Counted from the first letter of the stretch, positions 33,061-43,306 are shown. The stretch: 64,000 nt of DNA from an uncultured Bacillota bacterium (GCA_905205665.1 CAJLEF010000001.1:15120-79119), one strand, 5' to 3'. The notes: generated by a model not told the origin, from the sequence alone. Numbers and translations are program-made.

Positions 33061-34668
33061 ATGGATAAAAAGAAAAGAAATATTTTGATTACAATTGTTT
33101 TATTAATAGGAATCATAGCTATCATAGGCGTATCGTATGCCATATGGTTCCTAAACTTAACTCAAACAGGCCAAAATAATATTGCCTCATCATGTTTTAA
33201 TATTACCTTCACAGATAAAGACAATATTAGTTTACAAAAAGCTTACCCAATATTAGATGAAGAAGGAAAGAAACTAGCTCCTTATGAATTTACAATCACC
33301 AACACATGTGATTCTTATGCATCCTTTAACGTTAATCTAGAAGTCTTAAATACCACGACCTTAACCAATAATGATGCAGTTAAAGCCATGATATCATCAA
33401 AAACAAATGATACAGAAACAGAAATAACCACAAGTTTATTATCAGGTTATAAAACAACCACGAAAACTTTAGATAATGCTCAAACATCTTTTAATCTAAC
33501 AACAGGATATTTAAAGGCTAAAGAATCTAAAACGTATACCTTAAGATTATGGTTAGATGAAAACGTAGGCATGAATACAGAAGGAGTCCAAAATGCTAAA
33601 TTTAGTTCCAAAGTCGTTGTGACAACAAGTTATATAGAAGAAATACCTGTCGCAGGCAAAGATGTCTTAAGCTACGTTAAAGAAAATGCTGATTCATCTT
33701 CAACAGATGTTATTACCGTTCCAGGTATTTCAAACGATAGTTGTACTTATACTTTAGCCTATGATGGAACAAGTGATAACAATTTAAGATATGTTGGAAA
33801 AAATCCTTGCAACTATGTCAAAATAGATAACGAGTATTGGCGTATTATAGGTCTTATGAATAATATAGATGATGGAACAGGCAAAAAAGAAACAAGAATA
33901 AAATTGATAAGAAATGAATCAATAGGAACGTATTCATGGGACACATCCGAATCATCTATAAATAGTGGTTATGGTGTTAATGAATGGAGTCAAGCTGATT
34001 TAATGAAACTTTTAAATCCAGGCTATGAAAGTGAAAGTGTCGGAGGTTCATTATACTACAATAATAGTTCAGGAAACTGTAGTAGTTATAGTGGAACAAT
34101 AGCCTGTGATTTTACTACAACTGGCTTAAAAACAAATTTAAAAAAATTGGTAGGGACCACTTTATGGAACACGGGCACAAACGGAACAAATGATTATTCT
34201 TCAGCAAGTAATGGTTTAGCGAGTCATTTTTATAGTTACGAAAGGAGTAGTAATAATGGAAAAATATGCCCGTCAGGTAGTTATTGTAATGATACGGTAA
34301 CCAGAACAACGACGTGGAATGGTAAAATAGGCTTAATGTATCTAAGTGATTATGGATATGCGACAAGTGGAGGAACTAGTATGAATAGAACCAGTTGTTT
34401 AGCCAAAGAATTATACAACTGGGATGGTGCAAGTGACTGCTATAATAATGATTGGCTTTATAATTCTAGCAATAGTCAATGGACGATTTCTCCGTTCGCG
34501 GACTCTTCGTTTGCTAGCTATGTGTTCGGTGTCAGAGGCAGCGGCGCTGTCAACTACAGACATGCTTACAATGCTGGTTTGGTTCGCCCTTCGGTATATC
34601 TGATATCGAAAACGTCGATTTTAGGCGGTGAAGGAATGCTTGAAAATCCATATACGATTGCTGATTAG
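33061..34668 (+). CDS. Membrane-anchored or secreted surface protein, Asn/Ser/Thr/Cys-rich
   Basis: N-terminal TM/signal anchor ILITIVLLIGIIAIIGVSYAIW. The C-terminal pattern QWTISP...V..V...G.V......NAGLVRPSVYL resembles the WWLRSP...gVRPal motif of a widespread surface-protein domain (DUF6273-like, from memory). Confidence 0.5.
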   Translation: MDKKKRNILITIVLLIGIIAIIGVSYAIWFLNLTQTGQNNIASSCFNITFTDKDNISLQKAYPILDEEGKKLAPYEFTITNTCDSYASFNVNLEVLNTTTLTNNDAVKAMISSKTNDTETEITTSLLSGYKTTTKTLDNAQTSFNLTTGYLKAKESKTYTLRLWLDENVGMNTEGVQNAKFSSKVVVTTSYIEEIPVAGKDVLSYVKENADSSSTDVITVPGISNDSCTYTLAYDGTSDNNLRYVGKNPCNYVKIDNEYWRIIGLMNNIDDGTGKKETRIKLIRNESIGTYSWDTSESSINSGYGVNEWSQADLMKLLNPGYESESVGGSLYYNNSSGNCSSYSGTIACDFTTTGLKTNLKKLVGTTLWNTGTNGTNDYSSASNGLASHFYSYERSSNNGKICPSGSYCNDTVTRTTTWNGKIGLMYLSDYGYATSGGTSMNRTSCLAKELYNWDGASDCYNNDWLYNSSNSQWTISPFADSSFASYVFGVRGSGAVNYRHAYNAGLVRPSVYLISKTSILGGEGMLENPYTIAD

Positions 34669-34713: not shown

Positions 34714-34813
34714 GACCTTGTCAAGAGTGGTGTGTAAATTTTTTTAATATTTATAAATTATCAGACCTTGTCAAGAGTGGTGTGTAAATTTTTTTAATAT
34801 TTATAAATTATCA
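34714..34813. repeat. Perfect 50-bp tandem duplication (x2) containing the left IS terminal inverted repeat
   Basis: 34714-34763 and 34764-34813 are identical: GACCTTGTCAAGAGTGGTGTGTAAATTTTTTTAATATTTATAAATTATCA. Confidence 0.9.
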
Positions 34814-34852
34814 AAGAACATAAACTAGTATTTTAAAAAAAGTACTAGTTTT

Positions 34853-36085
34853 TTAGATGTCGAGATGTTTGGTAAAACGTTCTTTATAAATTTCAGAAAG
34901 CTGAATTTCAATTTTGTTCCAGTTTGGAATAGGTTTTTTCCATTTTTCTTCTAATTCTTCTACTCTGAGAAATAATATTTTGTAAACAGAATTTACAGAA
35001 GCAAATGAGCCTTTACCATTAGTAACTTTTCTAAGAGCAGAATTAACAGATTCTATAGCATTAGATGTATATATTGCCTTTCTTATTTCATCAGGCACTT
35101 CAAATAATGGCTCTAAATATTTCATATCTTCTTCTACTTTTTGAGTGACCTTTGTTAAAGATGAAAACTTTTCTTTAAAATTTTCTAATTCTAGCTGAGC
35201 CACTTTTAAATTAGATGCTGTGTATATTTTTTTGAAATTTTGAATAATCTCAGATGCTTGTTTTCTAGGACAAATTTTATATAAATTTCTTGTTAAATGA
35301 ACAACACATCTTTGAGCCTGTGTTTTAGGGTACACTGTTTCTAAAGAGCCTTTAAAACCAGCAATACCATCACTTGTAGAATAAAGAATATCTTTAACAC
35401 CACGTTTTTTCAAATCTTCAAAAACAGTTGTCCAAAAAGAAGCGGATTCTGTTTTATCACACCAAATTCCTAGCATTTCTTTTATGCCTTGAGCATTTAC
35501 GCCAATAATGACATAAAAAGCTTTCTTTTCGCTTTTTAAATCTTCTGTAACAGGAATATATAAGCAATCAGCATATATAAAAGCATAAAAGAATTTTAAA
35601 GGTCTATTTCGCCAGTTATCAACAACTTCTGTTATTGTATCTACAAAAGTTTGAACTTGATCTTTAGAAATATCAACTCCATAAATTTCTTTTAAAAGAC
35701 TTGAAATATCTCGATAACTCATTCCTTTAGCACATAAGGATAAGACAATATCTTCAAATTTACCAAGACGATTTTCTCCTTTTGGGATGATAATTGGTTC
35801 AAATTCACCATTTCTATCTCTAGGTGTTTTTATTTCAATAGCTCCATACTTCGTTTGAACTTTTTTTGTTTTACAATAACCATTTCTGGAATTTTCATTA
35901 TCTTTTTTATGTTCATATCTCTCATAACTTAACATGTTGGATAATTCGGTATCAAGCAATTTTTGATAAAGTGGTTGAACTAAATTATCAATAAAATTTT
36001 CAACATCCGCATTGTTTTTTATTTTGCCTTCTTTAAATCTTTTTATAGCCTCATCAATTATTGCATCGTTTATGTTGTTTTCCAT
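34853..36085 (-). CDS. IS256-family (mutator-type) DDE transposase
   Basis: Typical blocks: LSYERYEHK...NSRNGY, IYADCLYIPV (D), STSDGIAGF (D), CVVHLTRN, TSNAIESVNSALRK (E). RBS AAGGTGG. Confidence 0.9.
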   Translation of the reverse strand: MENNINDAIIDEAIKRFKEGKIKNNADVENFIDNLVQPLYQKLLDTELSNMLSYERYEHKKDNENSRNGYCKTKKVQTKYGAIEIKTPRDRNGEFEPIIIPKGENRLGKFEDIVLSLCAKGMSYRDISSLLKEIYGVDISKDQVQTFVDTITEVVDNWRNRPLKFFYAFIYADCLYIPVTEDLKSEKKAFYVIIGVNAQGIKEMLGIWCDKTESASFWTTVFEDLKKRGVKDILYSTSDGIAGFKGSLETVYPKTQAQRCVVHLTRNLYKICPRKQASEIIQNFKKIYTASNLKVAQLELENFKEKFSSLTKVTQKVEEDMKYLEPLFEVPDEIRKAIYTSNAIESVNSALRKVTNGKGSFASVNSVYKILFLRVEELEEKWKKPIPNWNKIEIQLSEIYKERFTKHLDI

Positions 36086-36098
36086 AATCCACCTTATA

Positions 36099-36869
36099 TT
36101 AGATAAATTCTATATCCGGATACAATATCATTAAATCATTCAGTATTAATGTCCATTGTTTCTTATTAAATGATATAAATCCAAAGAATCTATCTTCACT
36201 TTCCAATTTTTCATATATTTCATTTAAATCACTTATATATTTCTCAGTGCTGTTAAACGATAAACGAATTCTATCATATATTCTTGTGTTTGCCGAGGGT
36301 TTAAAGAGTAAATTTCTTATATTTGAACTATATTTATAGTAGCCTTCAACATTAACAAGATATTTTTCTATTAGTTTTTGATGAATGATGTTATTATAAG
36401 TCTCTTTAAATGAGTTAAATTCATTTTGCAATTCATTCATTGTTGGTTGAGAATATAATCTATGTATACGACTCATCACTTTTCGAGAACATTTTTCAGA
36501 AGTGTATTTATCAAACTTTGAAGAAATATAAATTAATGAATCAACAAAATTTACCATTGGAAATGCAATTTTAACAGTCCTTTTAAAATTTTTGTTATCA
36601 TCTATTGCAACAAATAATATTGTATTTAAACCTCTTGTTTTGAGCGATTCAAATATATCTAACCAATAACGATTGTTAAGTGGTCTATCTTGATAAATAC
36701 CAACTAATTGTCGTATTCCTTTTTTATTAATACCAACAAGAGTATAAATATTAATATTTTCGATAATATCTCCTTTTTTAACATTTAAATCATTTTTGAT
36801 GGTATACATCATTACATACATATCATCAAGTCTTTTCTTTGTGTAATCAATTAATTTTAAGTTTTGCAT
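36099..36869 (-). CDS. Divergent, N-terminally shorter IS256-transposase-like paralog with an apparently incomplete DDE triad
   Basis: IYTLVGINKKGIRQLVGIYQDRPLNNRYWLDIFESLKTRGLNTILFVAIDDNKNF parallels FYVIIGVNAQGIKEMLGIWCDKTESASFWTTVFEDLKKRGVKDILYSTSDGIAGF of the adjacent transposase. The first-D and E positions are not conserved (MYVMMY; NTRIYDRIR). Strong RBS AAGGAGG. Its stop lies 13 nt before the transposase start. Confidence 0.55.
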   Translation of the reverse strand: MQNLKLIDYTKKRLDDMYVMMYTIKNDLNVKKGDIIENINIYTLVGINKKGIRQLVGIYQDRPLNNRYWLDIFESLKTRGLNTILFVAIDDNKNFKRTVKIAFPMVNFVDSLIYISSKFDKYTSEKCSRKVMSRIHRLYSQPTMNELQNEFNSFKETYNNIIHQKLIEKYLVNVEGYYKYSSNIRNLLFKPSANTRIYDRIRLSFNSTEKYISDLNEIYEKLESEDRFFGFISFNKKQWTLILNDLMILYPDIEFI

Positions 36870-36947
36870 ATTCTTTCCTCCTTAAGCCATAAAAAAAATA
36901 TGGCATGCAATTCATTTAAGAATTTACACACCACATTCTACACCGTC

Positions 36948-37261
36948 GAGTATGAACTAGTACTTTTGAAATAAAGGTACTAGTTTTTTATATGTCGAGA
37001 TACTTAGTAAAGCGTTCTTTATAAATCTCAGAAAGCTGAATTTCAATTTTATTCCAGTTGGGAATAGGTTTTTTCCATTTGTCTTCTAATTCCTCTATTC
37101 TTAAAAATAATATTTTGTAAATGGATACTATTAGTAACTTTTCTAAGTACTGAATTTACAGATTCTATGGCATTAGATGTATATATCGCTTTTCTTATTT
37201 CATTCAAATAATGGTTCTAAATATTTTGGAGGTGTATCATATAACCACTCTTGACAAGGTA
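36948..37261 (-). pseudogene. Internally deleted remnant of a second IS256-family copy
   Basis: 36956-37228 align, with substitutions and two deletions, to the hairpin plus the last ~95 codons of the intact transposase (34826-35125). It ends in CCACTCTTGACAAGGT (37245-37260), the exact reverse complement of the outer 16 nt of the left IR. Confidence 0.7.
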
Positions 37262-37314: not shown

Positions 37315-37343
37315 TTGTTATTAAAAAAAATCTTTGATATAAT
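37315..37343 (+). promoter_or_regulatory. Sigma-A-type promoter for the pilus operon
   Basis: TTGTTA, 17 nt, TATAAT, with TG at the extended -10 position (TGaTATAAT). It lies ~30 nt upstream of the flp start and its GAGGGAG RBS. Confidence 0.5.
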
Positions 37344-37369: not shown

Positions 37370-37600
37370 ATGGATTCTAAAGGACAAGCTCTTGTGGAGT
37401 ATGTTTTAATCGTGGCTATTATTAGTGTTATTACAGTAAGTATTGTTTCTTATTTTGGTGGGTATTTAAAGGATACGATTGTAAAAACCTCGTGTGAATT
37501 AGTTGACAACGTTTACGTAGAAGGGGATAAACCAGGTAATGCTGAATGCTTAACTAAAGAAGAGTACAAAATCAAACAAGAAAAAGAAGGCCAAAAATGA
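37370..37600 (+). CDS. flp: Flp-family type IVb prepilin
   Basis: Very short leader MDSKG, then QALVEYVLIVAIISVITV. This is the G/xxxxEY Flp processing motif followed by a hydrophobic helix. 76 aa. Confidence 0.7.
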   Translation: MDSKGQALVEYVLIVAIISVITVSIVSYFGGYLKDTIVKTSCELVDNVYVEGDKPGNAECLTKEEYKIKQEKEGQK

Positions 37601-37947
37601 GAAATAAAAAAGGTCAAGCCCTTGTTGAGTTTGTCATTATTTTACCAATTTTTATTTTTATGTTATTAGCTATTATTGATGTCGGCAAAATTATATTTAT
37701 TCAAAATCGTTTAGAAAATAAAATGTCTAATGTTTTAGATTTATATCGTAACCAAAAAAGTTATGATGAAATTTTAACGACGTTATCAGGGGACGATAAT
37801 ACGATTCAGTTAGAAATCAAAAACGAAGAAAATAAAAATGTTACTTTCACCTTAAAAAAAGAAGTTAATATTGTCACACCAGGTCTATCATTAATCTTCA
37901 AAAATCCTTACGATGTCACCGTAAGTGAGGTTATCAGTTATGAATAA
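37597..37947 (+). CDS. TadE-like pseudopilin
   Basis: MRNKKG/QALVEFVIILPIFIFMLLAIIDVG matches the TadE-type N-terminus (E at +5, LP.. hydrophobic helix). Its start overlaps the flp stop. Confidence 0.68.
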   Translation: MRNKKGQALVEFVIILPIFIFMLLAIIDVGKIIFIQNRLENKMSNVLDLYRNQKSYDEILTTLSGDDNTIQLEIKNEENKNVTFTLKKEVNIVTPGLSLIFKNPYDVTVSEVISYE

Positions 37948-38308
37948 TAAAGGACAAACACTTATTATCTTTGTTATTTTAGTGCCAATTATCATTACCA
38001 TGATGGCTCTTGTTGTCGATGTAGGAATGTTAGAAAATAAAGTTTTAAAGACTAAAAATATAGTGGATGTAGCTATCAAAGAATATTTTAATAAAGAGGA
38101 TGTTACAGTCATATCTAAAACACTAGAAGAAAATGATATTTCCACCGATAAACTTATTATTAAAAGAACCGATAATGAAGTAGGCGTTAATGTAGAATAT
38201 GAAATGAGTTCTTTATTTGGTAAAATTGTTGGCTTACAAAAGTATGATGTGAAAGTAAAACGTAAAGGAATTAAAGAGAACGAAAAAATTAAAATTACAG
38301 AAGAATAG
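37940..38308 (+). CDS. TadE/TadF/TadG-like pseudopilin lacking Glu+5
   Basis: ATG 37940 after AGTGAGG. MNNKG/QTLIIFVILVPIIITMMALVVDVG has the same leader style as its neighbours, but Ile replaces Glu at +5. Confidence 0.55.
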   Translation: MNNKGQTLIIFVILVPIIITMMALVVDVGMLENKVLKTKNIVDVAIKEYFNKEDVTVISKTLEENDISTDKLIIKRTDNEVGVNVEYEMSSLFGKIVGLQKYDVKVKRKGIKENEKIKITEE

Positions 38309-38309
38309 G

Positions 38310-39092
38310 ATGGGGAATATGAAAAAGAAAATAGGAAAAAGTTTATGTTTGTTTTCAGGTAAAGGTGGTGTTGGAAAAACTATTTTAACACTCAATCTTG
38401 CCGCGATTTATTCACAAATAAATAAACATGTTTTAATTGTTGATTTGGATTTATCTAGTGGTGGTATTGCTCTTGCTACTAATAAAGTCTTTGATAAAAC
38501 CATTTATAATTTCGTAGATGATTACAACAATAACCGTTTTAAAGATTTTAATGACTATGTTGTGAAATATAATGAAAATATTGATATTATGCCAAGTCCT
38601 AAAGATCCAAGACAAGCTTCTAAGATAGATTCTAAATATATTGAAATTCTTTTAGATAAAGCAATGTTCCATTATGATATGGTTTTAATTGATACTAATC
38701 ATAATTTGAATGAATTAAATTTAGTTGTTTTAGATGCCGCCGACAATATTTTATTTGTCATAGAAAATGACCCCATGGATTTAAAAAATATGAAGAGTCT
38801 ACTTTCTATTTTTAAAGACTTAGATAAAACCAATTATAAAATTTTACTAAATAATAGCCGCGATCCTTTTAAAAAATATTTTACTCTTTATGATATGAAA
38901 ACCATTATTAAAAATAATATTGACTATGAAATTTCCTCCGAGTTCTTTTTAAAAAATATGGATTCCTATGTTATGAATGGAGAAATTCCAATGCTACAGC
39001 CAAAAGCGCCTAATATTTTTAATAAGGATTATACGACTATGATGAATTTGGCAGTCAGTTTTTTAGGAGGGGATAATAATGAGCAAAACTAG
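38310..39092 (+). CDS. TadZ/CpaE-like ParA/MinD-family ATPase
   Basis: Deviant Walker A SGKGGVGKT. About 260 aa, positioned directly upstream of the CpaF-type ATPase. Confidence 0.7.
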   Translation: MGNMKKKIGKSLCLFSGKGGVGKTILTLNLAAIYSQINKHVLIVDLDLSSGGIALATNKVFDKTIYNFVDDYNNNRFKDFNDYVVKYNENIDIMPSPKDPRQASKIDSKYIEILLDKAMFHYDMVLIDTNHNLNELNLVVLDAADNILFVIENDPMDLKNMKSLLSIFKDLDKTNYKILLNNSRDPFKKYFTLYDMKTIIKNNIDYEISSEFFLKNMDSYVMNGEIPMLQPKAPNIFNKDYTTMMNLAVSFLGGDNNEQN

Positions 39093-40413
39093 TTTAATTG
39101 AAGCTTTTAATATTGAAAGAAAAAAACCAAAGTTTAATGATGTCAGTGATTATGAAGTCTTTCCTGATAAAAAATTATTAGATGAATTAAGAGTTAAAAT
39201 TGTTGAAAATTTAATTGACCAAGAAATACCAGAAGATAAACTTTTACAACAATTTATTAATGATGAAATTGATAAATCGATTGAAGGATATGATTTAACC
39301 AATTTAGAAAGAAGTCATTTATATAACTTAATTGATAATGAAATTAATGGTTATGGACCTTTAACTGAACTTTTAGAAGATAAAAATATTACCGAGATAA
39401 TGGTCAATAGTCCTAAAGAAATATATATTGAAATTGATGGGCAACTTATTAAAGATGAAAGTGTCTCATTTATTAATGATGAACATATTATAAGAACCAT
39501 TGAAAGAATGATAGGACCTATGGGTAGAACGATTGATGCGACAAATCCAATGGTTGACTCAAGACTTAAAGATGGTTCTCGTATTAATGCTGTTATTCCG
39601 CCTTTATCTACGAAAGGACCTGTTATTACCATTCGTAAATTTAAAAAAGAAATGACAAGTGCCGATGACATGATAAGAATAGGGTCGATGACACCTTATA
39701 TGGCAACATTTTTAGAAGCTGCCGTCAAGGGAAAATGTAATATCATTATTTGTGGTGGTACGGGTTCAGGTAAAACAACTCTTTTAAATATTTTAAGTAG
39801 TTTTATTCCTGATAATGAACGTATTATTACTATTGAAGATGCGGCTGAGTTAAAACTGGAAAAAGAACATGTCATTTCTTTAGAAACAAGAGTAACTAAC
39901 TATGATAATGAAGGGGAAATTACCATTCGTGACTTAGTTATCAATGCTCTTCGTATGCGACCTGATCGTATCATTGTTGGGGAAGTTCGTGGTAAAGAGG
40001 CTTTTGATATGCTTCAAGCTATGAATACAGGACATGAAGGTTCTTTAACAACTCTTCATGCAAACGGTGCTAAAGATGCTTTAAACCGTTTAGAAACTAT
40101 GGTTTTAATGAGCGGTCTTGATATTCCTATTAAAGCTATCAGAGAGTATATTGTCAGTGCCATAGACCTTGTTGTTAATATCGAAAGAATGAATGATGGT
40201 AAAAGAAAAGTAACGTCTATATGTGAACTAGAAAGTTTTCATGATGGCGATATTAACTTAAAAGAAATCTTTGCTTTCCATCAAAAAGGCTTAACTGACA
40301 ATGGGGAAGTAGATGGCGAATATATTCTTTATGATAAAGAAGTGCCAAAAGTTTATAAAAAAATTGCTTCAAGGGGTATTACCGAAATTGACGAAATGTT
40401 TCATATAAAATAG
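39079..40413 (+). CDS. tadA: Tad secretion ATPase TadA/CpaF
   Basis: Walker [13 protein letters not shown], Asp box ITIEDAAEL, Walker [11 protein letters not shown], His box [13 protein letters not shown]. Confidence 0.9.
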
Positions 40414-40428
40414 GAAAGGAGGTATGTT

Positions 40429-41433
40429 ATGGAGTACTCATTACAAATTGTTATTACGCAAGGAATTATGATTATCATTTTACTTTTACTCATCATTTAT
40501 TTATTACACCAAAAAAGGGCTATCAAACTCCAAAAAAGATTTGATGCTTTTACCTTAAAAAGTGTTGTCGATGAAGAAAAAAGTATTTTTGATTATATTA
40601 TGAATTTTCTTTATAAAGTAATGAAAAAAGTAACCAATCTTTTAAGTCATTCGGAGGTTTTAAAAAAACATAGCCTTCGTTATGACAAATTTATTAAATA
40701 TGAAAATAAAGATAAAGTCTCTTCTATGGATTATATGACGGTGAAGTTTTTTACCGGGATCTTACTAGTTATTTTAAGTTTTGTTTCATCTATGTTTCAA
40801 CTTACTTCGTTATCATTACCTTTTATGTTTTTAGTATTTATCTTAGGCTTTTATATTCCTGACGTTTTCCTTTATATTGGTTTTCAAAAGAAAAGAAAGA
40901 AAATAGAAGAAGATTTATTAAAAGCAATCATTATTATGAATAACAGTTTTAAATCAGGACGCAATATAATGCAGGCTGTAGTAATTGTAAGAGATGAGTT
41001 AGAAGGCCCTATTAGTGATGAATTTAAAAAGATATATATGGATATGACTTATGGCTTATCTATTGAAGTAGTCTTTGACCGTTTTTATAATCGTGTCAAA
41101 TTAGATGATGCCAAATATATTGCTAGTTCTTTAACACTTTTAAACAAAACCGGTGGTAATATTGTCAAAGTCTTTGGAACGATTGAAAAATCTTTCTTTA
41201 GTAAAAAGAAACTTAAACAAGAAATGCAAAGTTTAACGAGTGCTTCTATCTTTGTTTATCGTACGCTTTGTGTTATGCCTTTTTTGTTTATTTTAGCTAT
41301 TTACATTTTAAATCCGACTTATTTTACCCCAATGTTTGAAACTACTTTAGGACGTATTTTACTTTTTGTCACCGTTTTATTTTATAGTTTATATATCTTT
41401 ATTATTAAACGTGTCATGGAGGTGAAGATGTAA
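40429..41433 (+). CDS. TadB-like platform protein (T2SS F domain)
   Basis: N-terminal TM, a cytoplasmic helical T2SSF-like domain (LLKAIIIMNNSFKSGRNIMQAV), and C-terminal TM helices. Confidence 0.72.
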   Translation: MEYSLQIVITQGIMIIILLLLIIYLLHQKRAIKLQKRFDAFTLKSVVDEEKSIFDYIMNFLYKVMKKVTNLLSHSEVLKKHSLRYDKFIKYENKDKVSSMDYMTVKFFTGILLVILSFVSSMFQLTSLSLPFMFLVFILGFYIPDVFLYIGFQKKRKKIEEDLLKAIIIMNNSFKSGRNIMQAVVIVRDELEGPISDEFKKIYMDMTYGLSIEVVFDRFYNRVKLDDAKYIASSLTLLNKTGGNIVKVFGTIEKSFFSKKKLKQEMQSLTSASIFVYRTLCVMPFLFILAIYILNPTYFTPMFETTLGRILLFVTVLFYSLYIFIIKRVMEVKM

Positions 41434-42137
41434 TGAAAAAAAATAGTATTGTAAAAAAAATATACTTAGATAGTACCATTAAAAAAATAACCAAAAAGGT
41501 AAAACTTTTAGGTATTAATTGTAAATATGACCCCATTGATTTATTAAATACACGTTTAATGTTAAGCCTTATTTTATTTGTGGTTATCTTAATTTTCTTT
41601 AAAAATGGCTTTTTTGTAGCCCCAATCTCAGTTGTTATTTTCCATTTTTTAAGTGAATATTTTATTCTCGATTTACCTATAAAAAAAAGAGAAGAAAAAC
41701 TAGAAGAAGAAGCTATTTTCTTTTTCGAAGTTCTTGCCTTAACCCTCGAAAGTGGTCGTAACTTAACATCTTCTTTAACTATTACAAGTAAGAATGTTGA
41801 TAGTGAGTTATCAAAAGAATTTCAAAAGTCTTTAAGTGAAATGCGCCTAGGTAAAAGTTTTCCCGAAGCTATGACTAGCATGAAAGAAAGAATACCAAGT
41901 GATGCGATTAATAATGCTATTTTAAATATTGTTCAAGCTAGTGTTTTTGGTAATAGTATTGAAGAATCTTTAAATAACCAACTTGATTTTTTAAGAGATA
42001 AAAGAATTTTGGAAATCAAAGGACGTATTGGTAAACTTCCCACTAAAATAAGTATCATTTCCGTATTATTTTTCATTCCTATTATCTTACTCGTTATTTT
42101 ATCACCTGTTCTAATTGAATTTTTGGGAGGTGTCTAA
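41433..42137 (+). CDS. TadC-like platform protein (T2SS F domain)
   Basis: Its start overlaps the tadB stop (ATGTAATG). Same TM-helical-TM layout (FFEVLALTLESGRNLTSSL). Confidence 0.68.
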   Translation: MKKNSIVKKIYLDSTIKKITKKVKLLGINCKYDPIDLLNTRLMLSLILFVVILIFFKNGFFVAPISVVIFHFLSEYFILDLPIKKREEKLEEEAIFFFEVLALTLESGRNLTSSLTITSKNVDSELSKEFQKSLSEMRLGKSFPEAMTSMKERIPSDAINNAILNIVQASVFGNSIEESLNNQLDFLRDKRILEIKGRIGKLPTKISIISVLFFIPIILLVILSPVLIEFLGGV

Positions 42138-42140
42138 ATA

Positions 42141-42743
42141 ATGTTAAATAAAAAAGGCATGACACTTTTGGAAATTGTTATCAGCATTGCCCTTATTTCA
42201 GTCGTCATGTTATTTTTATTTAGTCTTTTAAATGATATTCAATATGAATCTAAACACACATCTTACGCAAAAGATTTTCTAGTTAGTAGAGCAACAATTA
42301 TTAAAGATGTCGAAGAAGATATTTTGAATAATAACATTACGAATGTTATGCAAGTGAATGTGGATGCAAATAAAACCACTTTAAATTTTTTTGTAGGTAG
42401 TGACCCTTCTAACATGAACCTGGAGGTTGAAAGTAAGAAAATAACTTATAAAAATGCCGCAGGTGAAAAAGAAAGCTATTCTTTAAGTAAAGATAATGAT
42501 GAAGAAGTGTTTGATTTTGCTAACATTAAAATTAATTCTTATGCCGGAAGTAAAATTTATAAACCAGTTGATACTGATGGTGATGGCATTTGTAATTTTA
42601 ATTGTGATGATAATAGTCCTAAAAATGATGATTATGCTGTTGAACCTGATTTTAAATATTATCATATTATCATTCCGGTTTTAACCGGGGCTAGTGATAA
42701 TGCCATTGATGATTTAGAATTTTTCTTTTTAGTTAAAAAGTAA
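42141..42743 (+). CDS. Prepilin-type N-terminal cleavage/methylation-domain protein
   Basis: MLNKKG/MTLLEIVISIALISVVMLFLF is a class III signal peptide with Glu+5, type IVa/Com-pseudopilin style. The C-terminal part has the Asp-rich DTDGDGICNFNCDDNSPKNDDY. Confidence 0.65.
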   Translation: MLNKKGMTLLEIVISIALISVVMLFLFSLLNDIQYESKHTSYAKDFLVSRATIIKDVEEDILNNNITNVMQVNVDANKTTLNFFVGSDPSNMNLEVESKKITYKNAAGEKESYSLSKDNDEEVFDFANIKINSYAGSKIYKPVDTDGDGICNFNCDDNSPKNDDYAVEPDFKYYHIIIPVLTGASDNAIDDLEFFFLVKK

Positions 42744-42754
42744 GGAGGTAAGTC

Positions 42755-43306
42755 ATGAAAAAAAACGGTTTTGTCTTTATTGAAACTATTGTTGTAACAG
42801 GCTTTTTAATTACTTCTTTAATGATTTTATATACATTATTTGTCGCCACAAATAATAGAGAAACAAGAAAATTAAGATATGATGATCCTCCCAAAATTTA
42901 TGAGACGTATTATTTATATCGTTATTTAGAAAGTTTTAAATTAAGTGATTTAGTAGATAATTTAAAGGAAGGAAAAAGTAATTATGAGACTATTTATCGA
43001 AGTCGTGCTAATCTTTTTCCAGATTATCAAAAAGAAAGTGCATTTTTTGAAAACATGTGGGCTGAACTTCATGTCGAGGCTATTTACTTAATTCCTTCAA
43101 AAGTTTCTGAAATAATAACTTGTCCAAAGGGAAAATATACGACAATTTGTTCCGACAGGAATTTAATGAGTTATTTAAATACTTTAGATGATGATGAGAA
43201 TAATATTTTTTATTTTGTGGTGGAGTATAAGCACAAAAAAGATGGTACAACATGTGAACAAAAAGATTGCTTTTATTATTTTTCTCATTACAAAATAACG
43301 ACTTAA
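42755..43306 (+). CDS. Prepilin-like protein
   Basis: MKKNG/FVFIETIVVTGFLITSLMILY has Gly-1 and Glu+5, then a hydrophobic helix. There are four Cys in the C-terminal half. Confidence 0.5.
   Translation: MKKNGFVFIETIVVTGFLITSLMILYTLFVATNNRETRKLRYDDPPKIYETYYLYRYLESFKLSDLVDNLKEGKSNYETIYRSRANLFPDYQKESAFFENMWAELHVEAIYLIPSKVSEIITCPKGKYTTICSDRNLMSYLNTLDDDENNIFYFVVEYKHKKDGTTCEQKDCFYYFSHYKITT

Follow-up and report, generated by a model that had tools for sequence, protein, structure and literature searches.

A Gram-positive Tad pilus operon joined to a probable type IVa/Com-class minor-pilin pair in an uncultured Bacillota genome with an unlinked PilD-type peptidase

This study deals with a Tad/Flp pilus locus at positions 37370-43306 (+ strand) of a 64,000-nucleotide stretch of DNA from an uncultured Bacillota bacterium (GCA_905205665.1 CAJLEF010000001.1:15120-79119); this whole stretch is called the window below. 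Nine tightly packed open reading frames (ORFs), all of them intact, were found there, in agreement with an earlier reading made from the sequence alone (the sequence-only reading), which had described a close-packed, nine-gene operon. Judged from profile searches and gene order, genes 1 to 7 are a standard, self-sufficient Gram-positive Tad (type IVc) pilus operon, and genes 8 and 9 (P8 and P9) are most likely an unannotated, fast-evolving pair of type IVa (T4a)/Com-class minor pilins. The prepilin peptidase is unlinked, not missing. Based on these results, we favour, with a probability of about 0.62, the reading that a normal Tad operon has been joined to a T4a/Com-class pair of the cell's PilB/PilC/PilD machine and that the unlinked PilD-type peptidase is shared.

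The window lies on contig C1 of a 1.13-Mb genome (23 contigs, 88.8% complete) and has a G+C content of ca. 28%. It was compared with 47 congeneric genomes and with a 401-genome sample of the order covering 145 genera. TadA orthologues in the order sample were called at E <= 1e-90. A strong P9 match was defined as E <= 1e-20, and the tallies were limited to such matches because the weakest P9 matches (E > 1e-10) may reflect the N-terminal helix only. The nine genes are as follows.

37370-37600, + strand: flp, Flp-type major pilin precursor, 76 aa, leader MDSKG/QALVEY (motif read from the sequence; Flp_Fap profile)
37597-37947, + strand: tadE-like pseudopilin gene, 116 aa, leader MRNKKG/QALVEF (PF07811 TadE, 41.8 bits, cut-off 22.9)
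37940-38308, + strand: third Tad pseudopilin with a TadF/TadG-like N-terminus, 122 aa, leader MNNKG/QTLIIF without Glu+5 (PF13400 Tad, 21.1 bits)
38310-39092, + strand: tadZ/cpaE-like ParA/MinD-type ATPase, 260 aa (AAA_31, 66 bits; CbiA, 41 bits)
39079-40413, + strand: tadA/cpaF secretion ATPase, 444 aa (T2SSE, 209 bits; TIGR03819, 321 bits)
40429-41433, + strand: tadB platform protein, 334 aa, one T2SSF domain (PF00482, 39.5 bits)
41433-42137, + strand: tadC platform protein, 234 aa, one T2SSF domain (PF00482, 68.5 bits)
42141-42743, + strand: gene 8 (P8), T4a/Com-class minor-pilin-like protein, 200 aa, leader MLNKKG/MTLLE (N_methyl, TIGR02532)
42755-43306, + strand: gene 9 (P9), T4a/Com-class minor-pilin-like protein, 183 aa, leader MKKNG/FVFIE (N-terminus; no Pfam or NCBIfam family)

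From flp to gene 9, the successive junctions are overlaps of 4 and 8 nt, a gap of 1 nt, an overlap of 14 nt, a gap of 15 nt, an overlap of 1 nt and gaps of 3 and 11 nt. The short basic leader ending in Gly that had been claimed for five proteins was read in all five.

Genes 1 to 7 encode a Tad system

The products of genes 1 to 7 had been named in the sequence-only reading as Flp, a TadE-like protein, a third pseudopilin, TadZ, TadA, TadB and TadC, and the Pfam and NCBIfam profile searches agreed with these calls. The product of gene 1 scored 24.2 bits against Flp_Fap (cut-off 32.2), and its G/xxxxEY motif and 76-aa size fit Flp; it is always encoded by the first gene of the operon and was 72-100% identical among congeners. 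Pseudopilins of the TadE/TadF type are represented by gene 2, which scored above the TadE cut-off, and by gene 3, its paralogue (phmmer 7e-08). The third pseudopilin scored 21.1 bits against PF13400 Tad (cut-off 22.3) and 14.4 bits against TadE, and it keeps the same operon position in other genera. Its start was placed at the ATG at 37940, giving MNNKGQTLIIF; an alternative GTG at 37925 lies 5' of the start used in homologues.

TadZ was found to be without an N-terminal receiver-like domain and scored 29.8 bits against CpaE_hom_Actino (cut-off 154). The best NCBIfam match of TadA was TIGR03819 (TadA family), at 321 bits under an equivalog cut-off of 373, and the locus thus holds the TadA-clade ATPase expected of a Tad system. 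Genes 6 and 7 form the adjacent pair of single-T2SSF platform genes that is likewise characteristic of Tad, and a separate GspF/PilC-type PilC is encoded elsewhere in the genome. TadB orthologues sharing at least 59% identity were present in 32 of the 47 congeners. In five other genera sampled, an identical seven-gene tad operon was found in which tadC is the last gene and is followed by unrelated genes.

Two further observations were made on the Tad proteins. TadA was unusually conserved, with 76-89% identity across other genera, or 64-89% when counted order-wide over the other genera listed, and its pilins diverge quickly. Besides, the KG/Q ends of the leaders of Flp, TadE and the third pseudopilin recall the +1 Gln of archaeal Epd-type pilins, and gene 1 weakly matched (15 bits) the archaeal Class_IIIsignal family (PF04021). 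Archaeal Epd-type pilins are regarded as the source of Tad systems (PMC6668835).

A single PilD-type peptidase is encoded on another contig

No A24 prepilin peptidase was found in the window, as the sequence-only reading had stated, and a whole-genome scan with PF01478 gave a sole match, on contig C5. The caveat attached to that statement, that the peptidase may be unlinked, was borne out by this gene (C5:71280-72143), a 287-aa ORF (257 aa from the likely start) that lies just downstream of pilC. Since its product carries both an A24_N_bact domain (93 bits) and a Peptidase_A24 domain (40 bits), the enzyme is of the PilD type. On the same contig, the gene for a GspE/PilB/ComGA-like ATPase follows ca. 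19 kb further on. In 46 of the 47 congeners there was one A24 gene, and no more, above the cut-off; wherever the places of both were listed, it was not on the tad contig. An A24 peptidase of the TadV/CpaA type, which has no N-terminal domain, was not found in this 88.8%-complete genome, and no second, TadV-type peptidase was found genus-wide, where two sub-threshold, pseudogene-like fragments were seen in other congeners. The concern that the genome might hold no compatible peptidase is thus answered by one PilD-type enzyme.

The genome encodes many classical GFTL(I/V)EL prepilins, and all five leaders of the operon end in K/N-G, as do those of its T4a prepilins. Because of this resemblance, one PilD for all prepilins is the simplest reading: most likely, all five operon prepilins would be cut by the single unlinked PilD-type peptidase beside pilC, and the same enzyme would possibly N-methylate them. 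Type IV filament systems exchange prepilin peptidases, and tadV can be a 'loner' (PMC6668835). MSH loci are always without a peptidase of their own and borrow one (Denise et al. 2019, PMC6668835), and PilD serves both the type II secretion system (T2SS) and the type IVa pilus (T4aP) (PMC6668835); in current detection models, TadV counts as non-exchangeable (PMC6668835).

Four or five giant prepilins of 940-970 aa with canonical GFTLIEL N-termini were also observed in this genome (G000), at C2:79621-76802(-), C3:92995-95856(+), C4:59537-62362(+) and C12:31995-29080(-). They may be modular pilins, whose size is unusual for such a small genome.

Genes 8 and 9 resemble T4a/Com-class minor pilins

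P8 matched N_methyl (PF07963) at 25.1 bits and TIGR02532 at 22.1 bits, each above the cut-off. P9 gave no match to any Pfam or NCBIfam family; its N-terminal K-x-G-F-V-F-x-E-T is invariant in 37 relatives, six of which weakly matched TIGR02532. The cleavage/methylation motif (G/[FM]xxxE followed by a hydrophobic helix) is therefore present in both proteins, in P8 by profiles and in P9 by the invariant N-terminus. When family members were scanned one by one, weak ComGE matches were given by 26 of 37 P9 and 36 of 36 P8 proteins, and ComGF and GspH/I/J were also weakly matched; Flp and TadE were never matched by any member of either family in these scans. The ComGE and ComGF equivalog cut-offs were not reached by either protein, the best ComGE score of P8 being 23.7 bits (cut-off 49) and P9 itself giving no score. 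The claim that the last two proteins have T4a/Com-like N-termini accordingly stood, on their GFxxxE-type start and the weak ComGE/ComGF/Gsp matches. Both proteins are pilin-like, which speaks against the possibility, raised in the same reading, that they are unrelated membrane proteins.

In the AlphaFold2 (AF2) models, P8 (mean predicted local distance difference test score, pLDDT, 76.5) has helices at residues 9-37 and 44-63 followed by eight strands, and P9 (pLDDT 81.3) is alpha/beta. Both models have a long N-terminal helix with a sheet-rich head after it, an order of elements that would fit a pilin fold. Searched against PDB sequences, the P8 and P9 profiles matched the T4 pilin N-terminal helix and nothing beyond. 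We also considered whether P8 and P9 are simple paralogues; this was ruled out because a profile-profile comparison found a common region at residues 1-57 only. P8 has a conserved Asp-rich loop, DxDxDG...C..NC, in which D-x-x-x-D-G...N-C is invariant, and four Cys of P9 are near-invariant; these features fit extracellular proteins. Between near strains, identity was 61-85% for P8 and 64-96% for P9 versus ca. 99% for TadA, and from this fast divergence and the P9 cysteines the two proteins look surface-exposed. The P9 profile matched 1345 cluster representatives among 1.84 billion, some with C-terminal extensions of 500-1300 aa.

The pair is widespread without Tad and adjoins pilB, pilC and pilD in other genera

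A scan of one genome per species gave 124 loci encoding P9, all in uncultured gut Bacilli/'Tenericutes' sampled from humans (Hadza), rabbits, mice, chickens and the rumen; Candidatus Ventrenecus stercoripullorum is the name of one congener. Eighty of these loci were kept. P8 was partnered with P9 in ca. 65 loci, and the order was P9 then P8 in nearly all 80, the order P8-P9 being confined to the clade of the window. Most of the 80 loci had no tad gene within 8 kb.

Across the 401 genomes of the order sample, the P9 profile matched 299, a TadA orthologue was found in 212 and a PilB-like ATPase in 386. About 47 of the ca. 95 genomes with a strong P9 match had no TadA in a cross-tabulation counted by hand from two tables. 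Whole P9-bearing genera were without TadA (g36, 0/19; g53, 0/11; g111, 0/5; g136, 0/3; g128, 0/3), and many genera had Tad and no P9 match. PilB-like and PilT-like ATPases only were encoded in six of 20 sampled genomes that carry the pair. By coordinates, P9 and pilB are direct neighbours in 15 genomes of eight genera, and ORF annotation of seven loci from other genera gave orders such as pilC-pilD-<pilB P9-P8> <ylbJ-like ylbL-like; the ylbJ/ylbL right flank is retained where pilB has moved away. Linkage of P8 and P9 to the PilB ATPase, PilC and PilD is thus found in other genera and not in this genome. Outside this genus, no P9-TadA adjacency was seen among the places listed.

Some relatives carry additional components. 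A third ATPase of ca. 370 aa, PilT-like (E ca. 1e-28 versus TadA), was found in most sampled relatives and was not found in this 88.8%-complete genome. In Tad-less genera, a third prepilin-like gene stands between P9 and P8 and makes a three-gene minor-pilin set (L081:8558-9574, L123:1957-3372, L122:6665-7573); its product has 290-470 aa and a leader MKKNG/FISTSLIY or MKNNKG/FISVTVIY without Glu+5.

Arrangements within the genus and the readings compared

Several arrangements were found among the congeners: tadC-P9-P8(-ruvAB); tadC-P9-P8-ruvAB with a homologue of a 535-aa protein (described below) between tadC and P9; tadC, five unrelated genes and then P9-P8-ruvAB; tadC, genes for 518-aa and 174-aa proteins and then P8-P9; diverged tadZABC followed by P9-P8 (G052); and, in the clade of the window, tadC-P8-P9. 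G017, G021, G004 and G057 have the pair at a distance from tad. A single ancestral juxtaposition beside ruvAB with local shuffling afterwards accounts for every one of these arrangements, which are therefore not independent events. Contig C4 carries ruvAB in this genome, next to a further paralogue of the 535-aa gene, so recombination between such paralogues may have been the route of the rearrangement.

We favour the joining of a normal Tad operon to a pair that belongs to another machine. Family-wide in these uncultured small-genome gut Bacilli, P8 and P9 would belong with the near-universal PilB/PilC/PilD machine. The ancestor of the genus would have gained the pair beside its tad operon, and genes 8 and 9 here probably ride on the tad transcript. 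The two proteins would be incorporated by the PilB/PilC machine and not by Tad, probably as a priming or tip pair. The mixture of Flp-type and methylation-motif pilins in one operon most likely came about by gene-order shuffling, and a lineage-specific link through co-transcription with tad is possible. Since ComEC was found in 44 of the 47 congeners, the PilB machine may serve DNA uptake.

Several points weigh against this reading. The pair abuts tadC in this genus only, with a gap of 3 nt here, and the attachment to tad survives several rearrangements, including the one beside the diverged tadZABC of G052. P9 accompanies a TadB orthologue in 31 of 32 congeners and is mostly absent where TadB is diverged or missing; this co-occurrence is not independent evidence, because the pattern follows one clade split and phylogeny confounds it. 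Foldseek searches of the AF2 models against the PDB gave no significant fold (best E 0.22 for gene 8 and 1.1 for gene 9). The genomes are metagenome-assembled, so that lone absences are weak evidence and genus-wide absences strong.

The abutment on tadC, its survival through the rearrangements and the co-occurrence of P9 with TadB would also speak for a hybrid Tad pilus, an IVc/IVa chimera in which the Tad system of the genus has recruited P8 and P9 as an initiation or tip complex, with one PilD-type enzyme maturing both kinds of subunit. Genes 8 and 9 have no strong promoter or terminator of their own, their linkage to tadC outlasts inversion of the pair as well as relocation, and the five leaders are alike, so one peptidase could mature the mixed set. 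The pair is, however, older and far wider than the juxtaposition, the seven-gene Tad operon is complete without it in five other genera, a single juxtaposition next to ruvAB with shuffling suffices for the genus, and four congeners keep the pair away from tad. The sequence-only reading had proposed a hybrid fibre or tip complex from the mixture of substrates in one operon; that proposal is not supported, because the pair is widespread without Tad and adjoins pilB/pilC/pilD in other genera, and we consider the chimera unlikely.

On a further reading, P8 and P9 could act separately, as a short pseudopilus or a complex anchored in the membrane that has its own role, such as one in sporulation or germination, and is independent of both long pili. 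In most genera the pair has spoVID-like and ysxE-like genes upstream and a ylbJ-like gene downstream (named by N-terminal resemblance only), in the window it is convergent with a gerA-type germinant receptor operon, and the family is widespread with sometimes large C-terminal modules. These sporulation-type neighbours were named by eye, though, and the adjacency to pilB/pilC/pilD is more specific and recurrent. Prepilin leaders require an assembly ATPase and a platform; the leaders of P8 and P9 would need these in addition to a prepilin peptidase. This reading appears quite improbable.

Two side observations concern other loci of the genus. A second clade (L104-L106, from G057, G003 and G002, and L103, from G052) has tadZ-tadA-tadB-tadC with a TadB only 25-30% identical, and no flp, tadE or tadG adjacent. 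In G047, other classes of surface-fibre protein are interleaved with the pilin genes: a 174-aa protein (L111:11277-11801) with a SipW/camelysin-type N-terminus (...GSYAYFSSE) and a weak Peptidase_M73 match (18.9 bits) stands, together with a 518-aa anchored protein, between tadC and P8-P9.

Upstream region of the operon

Upstream of flp, the following features were located.

37315-37343, + strand: probable native flp/tad promoter, TTGTTA-17 nt-TATAAT with the extended -10 TGATATAAT, followed by the ribosome-binding site (RBS) AGAGGGAG (consensus scan and conservation)
34764..37261 (boundaries putative), - strand: insertion sequence (IS) of the IS256/Mutator family and an older remnant, upstream of the promoter (Transposase_mut profile)
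33061-34668, + strand: 535-aa membrane-anchored or secreted protein, possibly a pilus-associated module (context only; no Pfam family)

The predicted promoter carries the TG of an extended -10. Promoter-like sites in this AT-rich region were not in excess (63 versus 57.5 +/- 7.7 in shuffles); the real support for the site at 37315-37343 lies in its conservation and not in its scan score. The block of -35, -10 and RBS is identical before flp in the IS-free G020 and G043, and the -10/RBS part also occurs in G012 and G006. No terminator was found inside or after the operon in the scan. The IS comprises a Transposase_mut gene at 34853-36085(-) (327 bits), a truncated paralogue at 36099-36869(-) (71 bits) and a remnant at ca. 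37049-37207. The full IS is absent from G020, G043 and G012 and unique to this genome among those compared; the remnant is common to G006. Both the transposase genes and the promoter site were thus recovered where the sequence-only reading had placed an IS directly upstream with a surviving promoter. Because the block is identical in IS-free relatives, the operon is intact and its native promoter probably drives its expression.

We also considered whether the locus is decaying or silent, its regulation having been severed by the nested IS 50-600 bp upstream; the HD-domain gene found before flp in most congeners is missing here as well. This reading was rejected as highly improbable: the nine frames are intact, the core promoter and RBS are conserved, IS-free relatives share 97-100% identity in TadA, TadB and TadC, and G020 and G043, also without the HD gene at that position, keep the operon.

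That HD-domain gene encodes, in most congeners, a protein of 165-172 aa (PF01966, 44 bits) directly 5' of flp or tadZ, for example at L108:6414-6932(-), L109:6358-6864(-), L113:2614-3111(+), L015:13354-13863(-) and L103:5200-5718(-). It could regulate the Tad operon; in the clade of the window it is not at the position before flp.

The 535-aa protein belongs to a family with ca. 15 paralogues in the 1.1-Mb genome, whose N-terminal anchor ends in ...G(V/I)SYA(I/L/Y)W. They include C1:158423-160036, C2:82568-84178, C4:89536-91068, C1:128102-129706, C4:43620-45251, C15:7952-9358 and C7:39347-40813. Residues 236-535 of the 535-aa protein are homologous (BLASTP 1e-13) to residues 80-302 of a prepilin-headed protein of 302 aa whose gene stands between P9 and P8 in Tad-less genera (L122:6665-7573). 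The shared C-terminal domain may be an adhesin-like module that is presented on a pilin or else on an anchor of its own. A specific three-gene module of the 535-aa protein with P9 and P8 was also considered, and it is weakened because the paralogues are dispersed; only the sharing of the C-terminal domain was retained.

Significance and comparison with known systems

These gut Bacilli with small genomes have their type IV filament genes dispersed, so annotation can be misled by adjacency in one genome. The family of P8 and P9 adds an unannotated minor-pilin pair whose gene-9 profile gives matches in most genera of an uncultured gut lineage, and it places fast-evolving predicted surface subunits beside a motor that is 99% conserved between strains. 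The genome would also offer a naturally occurring example of a Tad system that has to rely on a single PilD-type peptidase. If the pilus were a hybrid after all, subunits would be exchangeable between type IVa and type IVc machines.

Genes 1 to 7 can be compared with Gram-positive Tad/Flp loci such as the tad locus of Bifidobacterium breve (flp-tadE-tadF, tadZABC and an unlinked tadV) and Bulleidia extructa's tad operon (PMC12786226). Shared features are a short Flp-like pilin with G/xxxxEY, TadE-like and Tad_N-type pseudopilins, a ParA-like ATPase resembling TadZ, TadA, TadB and TadC split as single-T2SSF proteins, the absence of a secretin and a peptidase that may be encoded apart. Unlike those loci, the present one has a TadZ without a receiver-like N-terminal domain and leaders of 5-6 residues that end in KG/Q and resemble archaeal Epd-type signals; the sole A24 enzyme is PilD-type with the N-terminal domain, none of the TadV type being found in the genome, and tadC is followed, in this genus alone, by two T4a-class prepilin genes.

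P8 and P9 are like ComGD/ComGE/ComGF/ComGG and GspH-K or PilV-X in having a class III signal peptide with Gly-1 and Glu+5, a size of 180-200 aa, and a predicted long N-terminal helix with a beta-sheet head. As with the minor pilins of Com, T4aP and T2SS, their genes adjoin each other as a pair, or as a trio in some genera, and several genera have them beside pilB/pilC/pilD. They differ from all these minor pilins in that their matches, which mostly cover the N-terminal helix only, stay far under the curated cut-offs, that their heads match no Pfam or NCBIfam family or PDB fold, and that most genomes have their genes dispersed away from the machine; here the genes are joined to the Tad operon.

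With respect to the peptidase, this locus is like the MSH loci, and like the sharing of PilD by T2SS and T4aP (PMC6668835), in that another system supplies a filament locus that has no A24 gene of its own. It differs from those cases (PMC6668835) in that the presumed donor is of the PilD type and the recipient is a Tad system.

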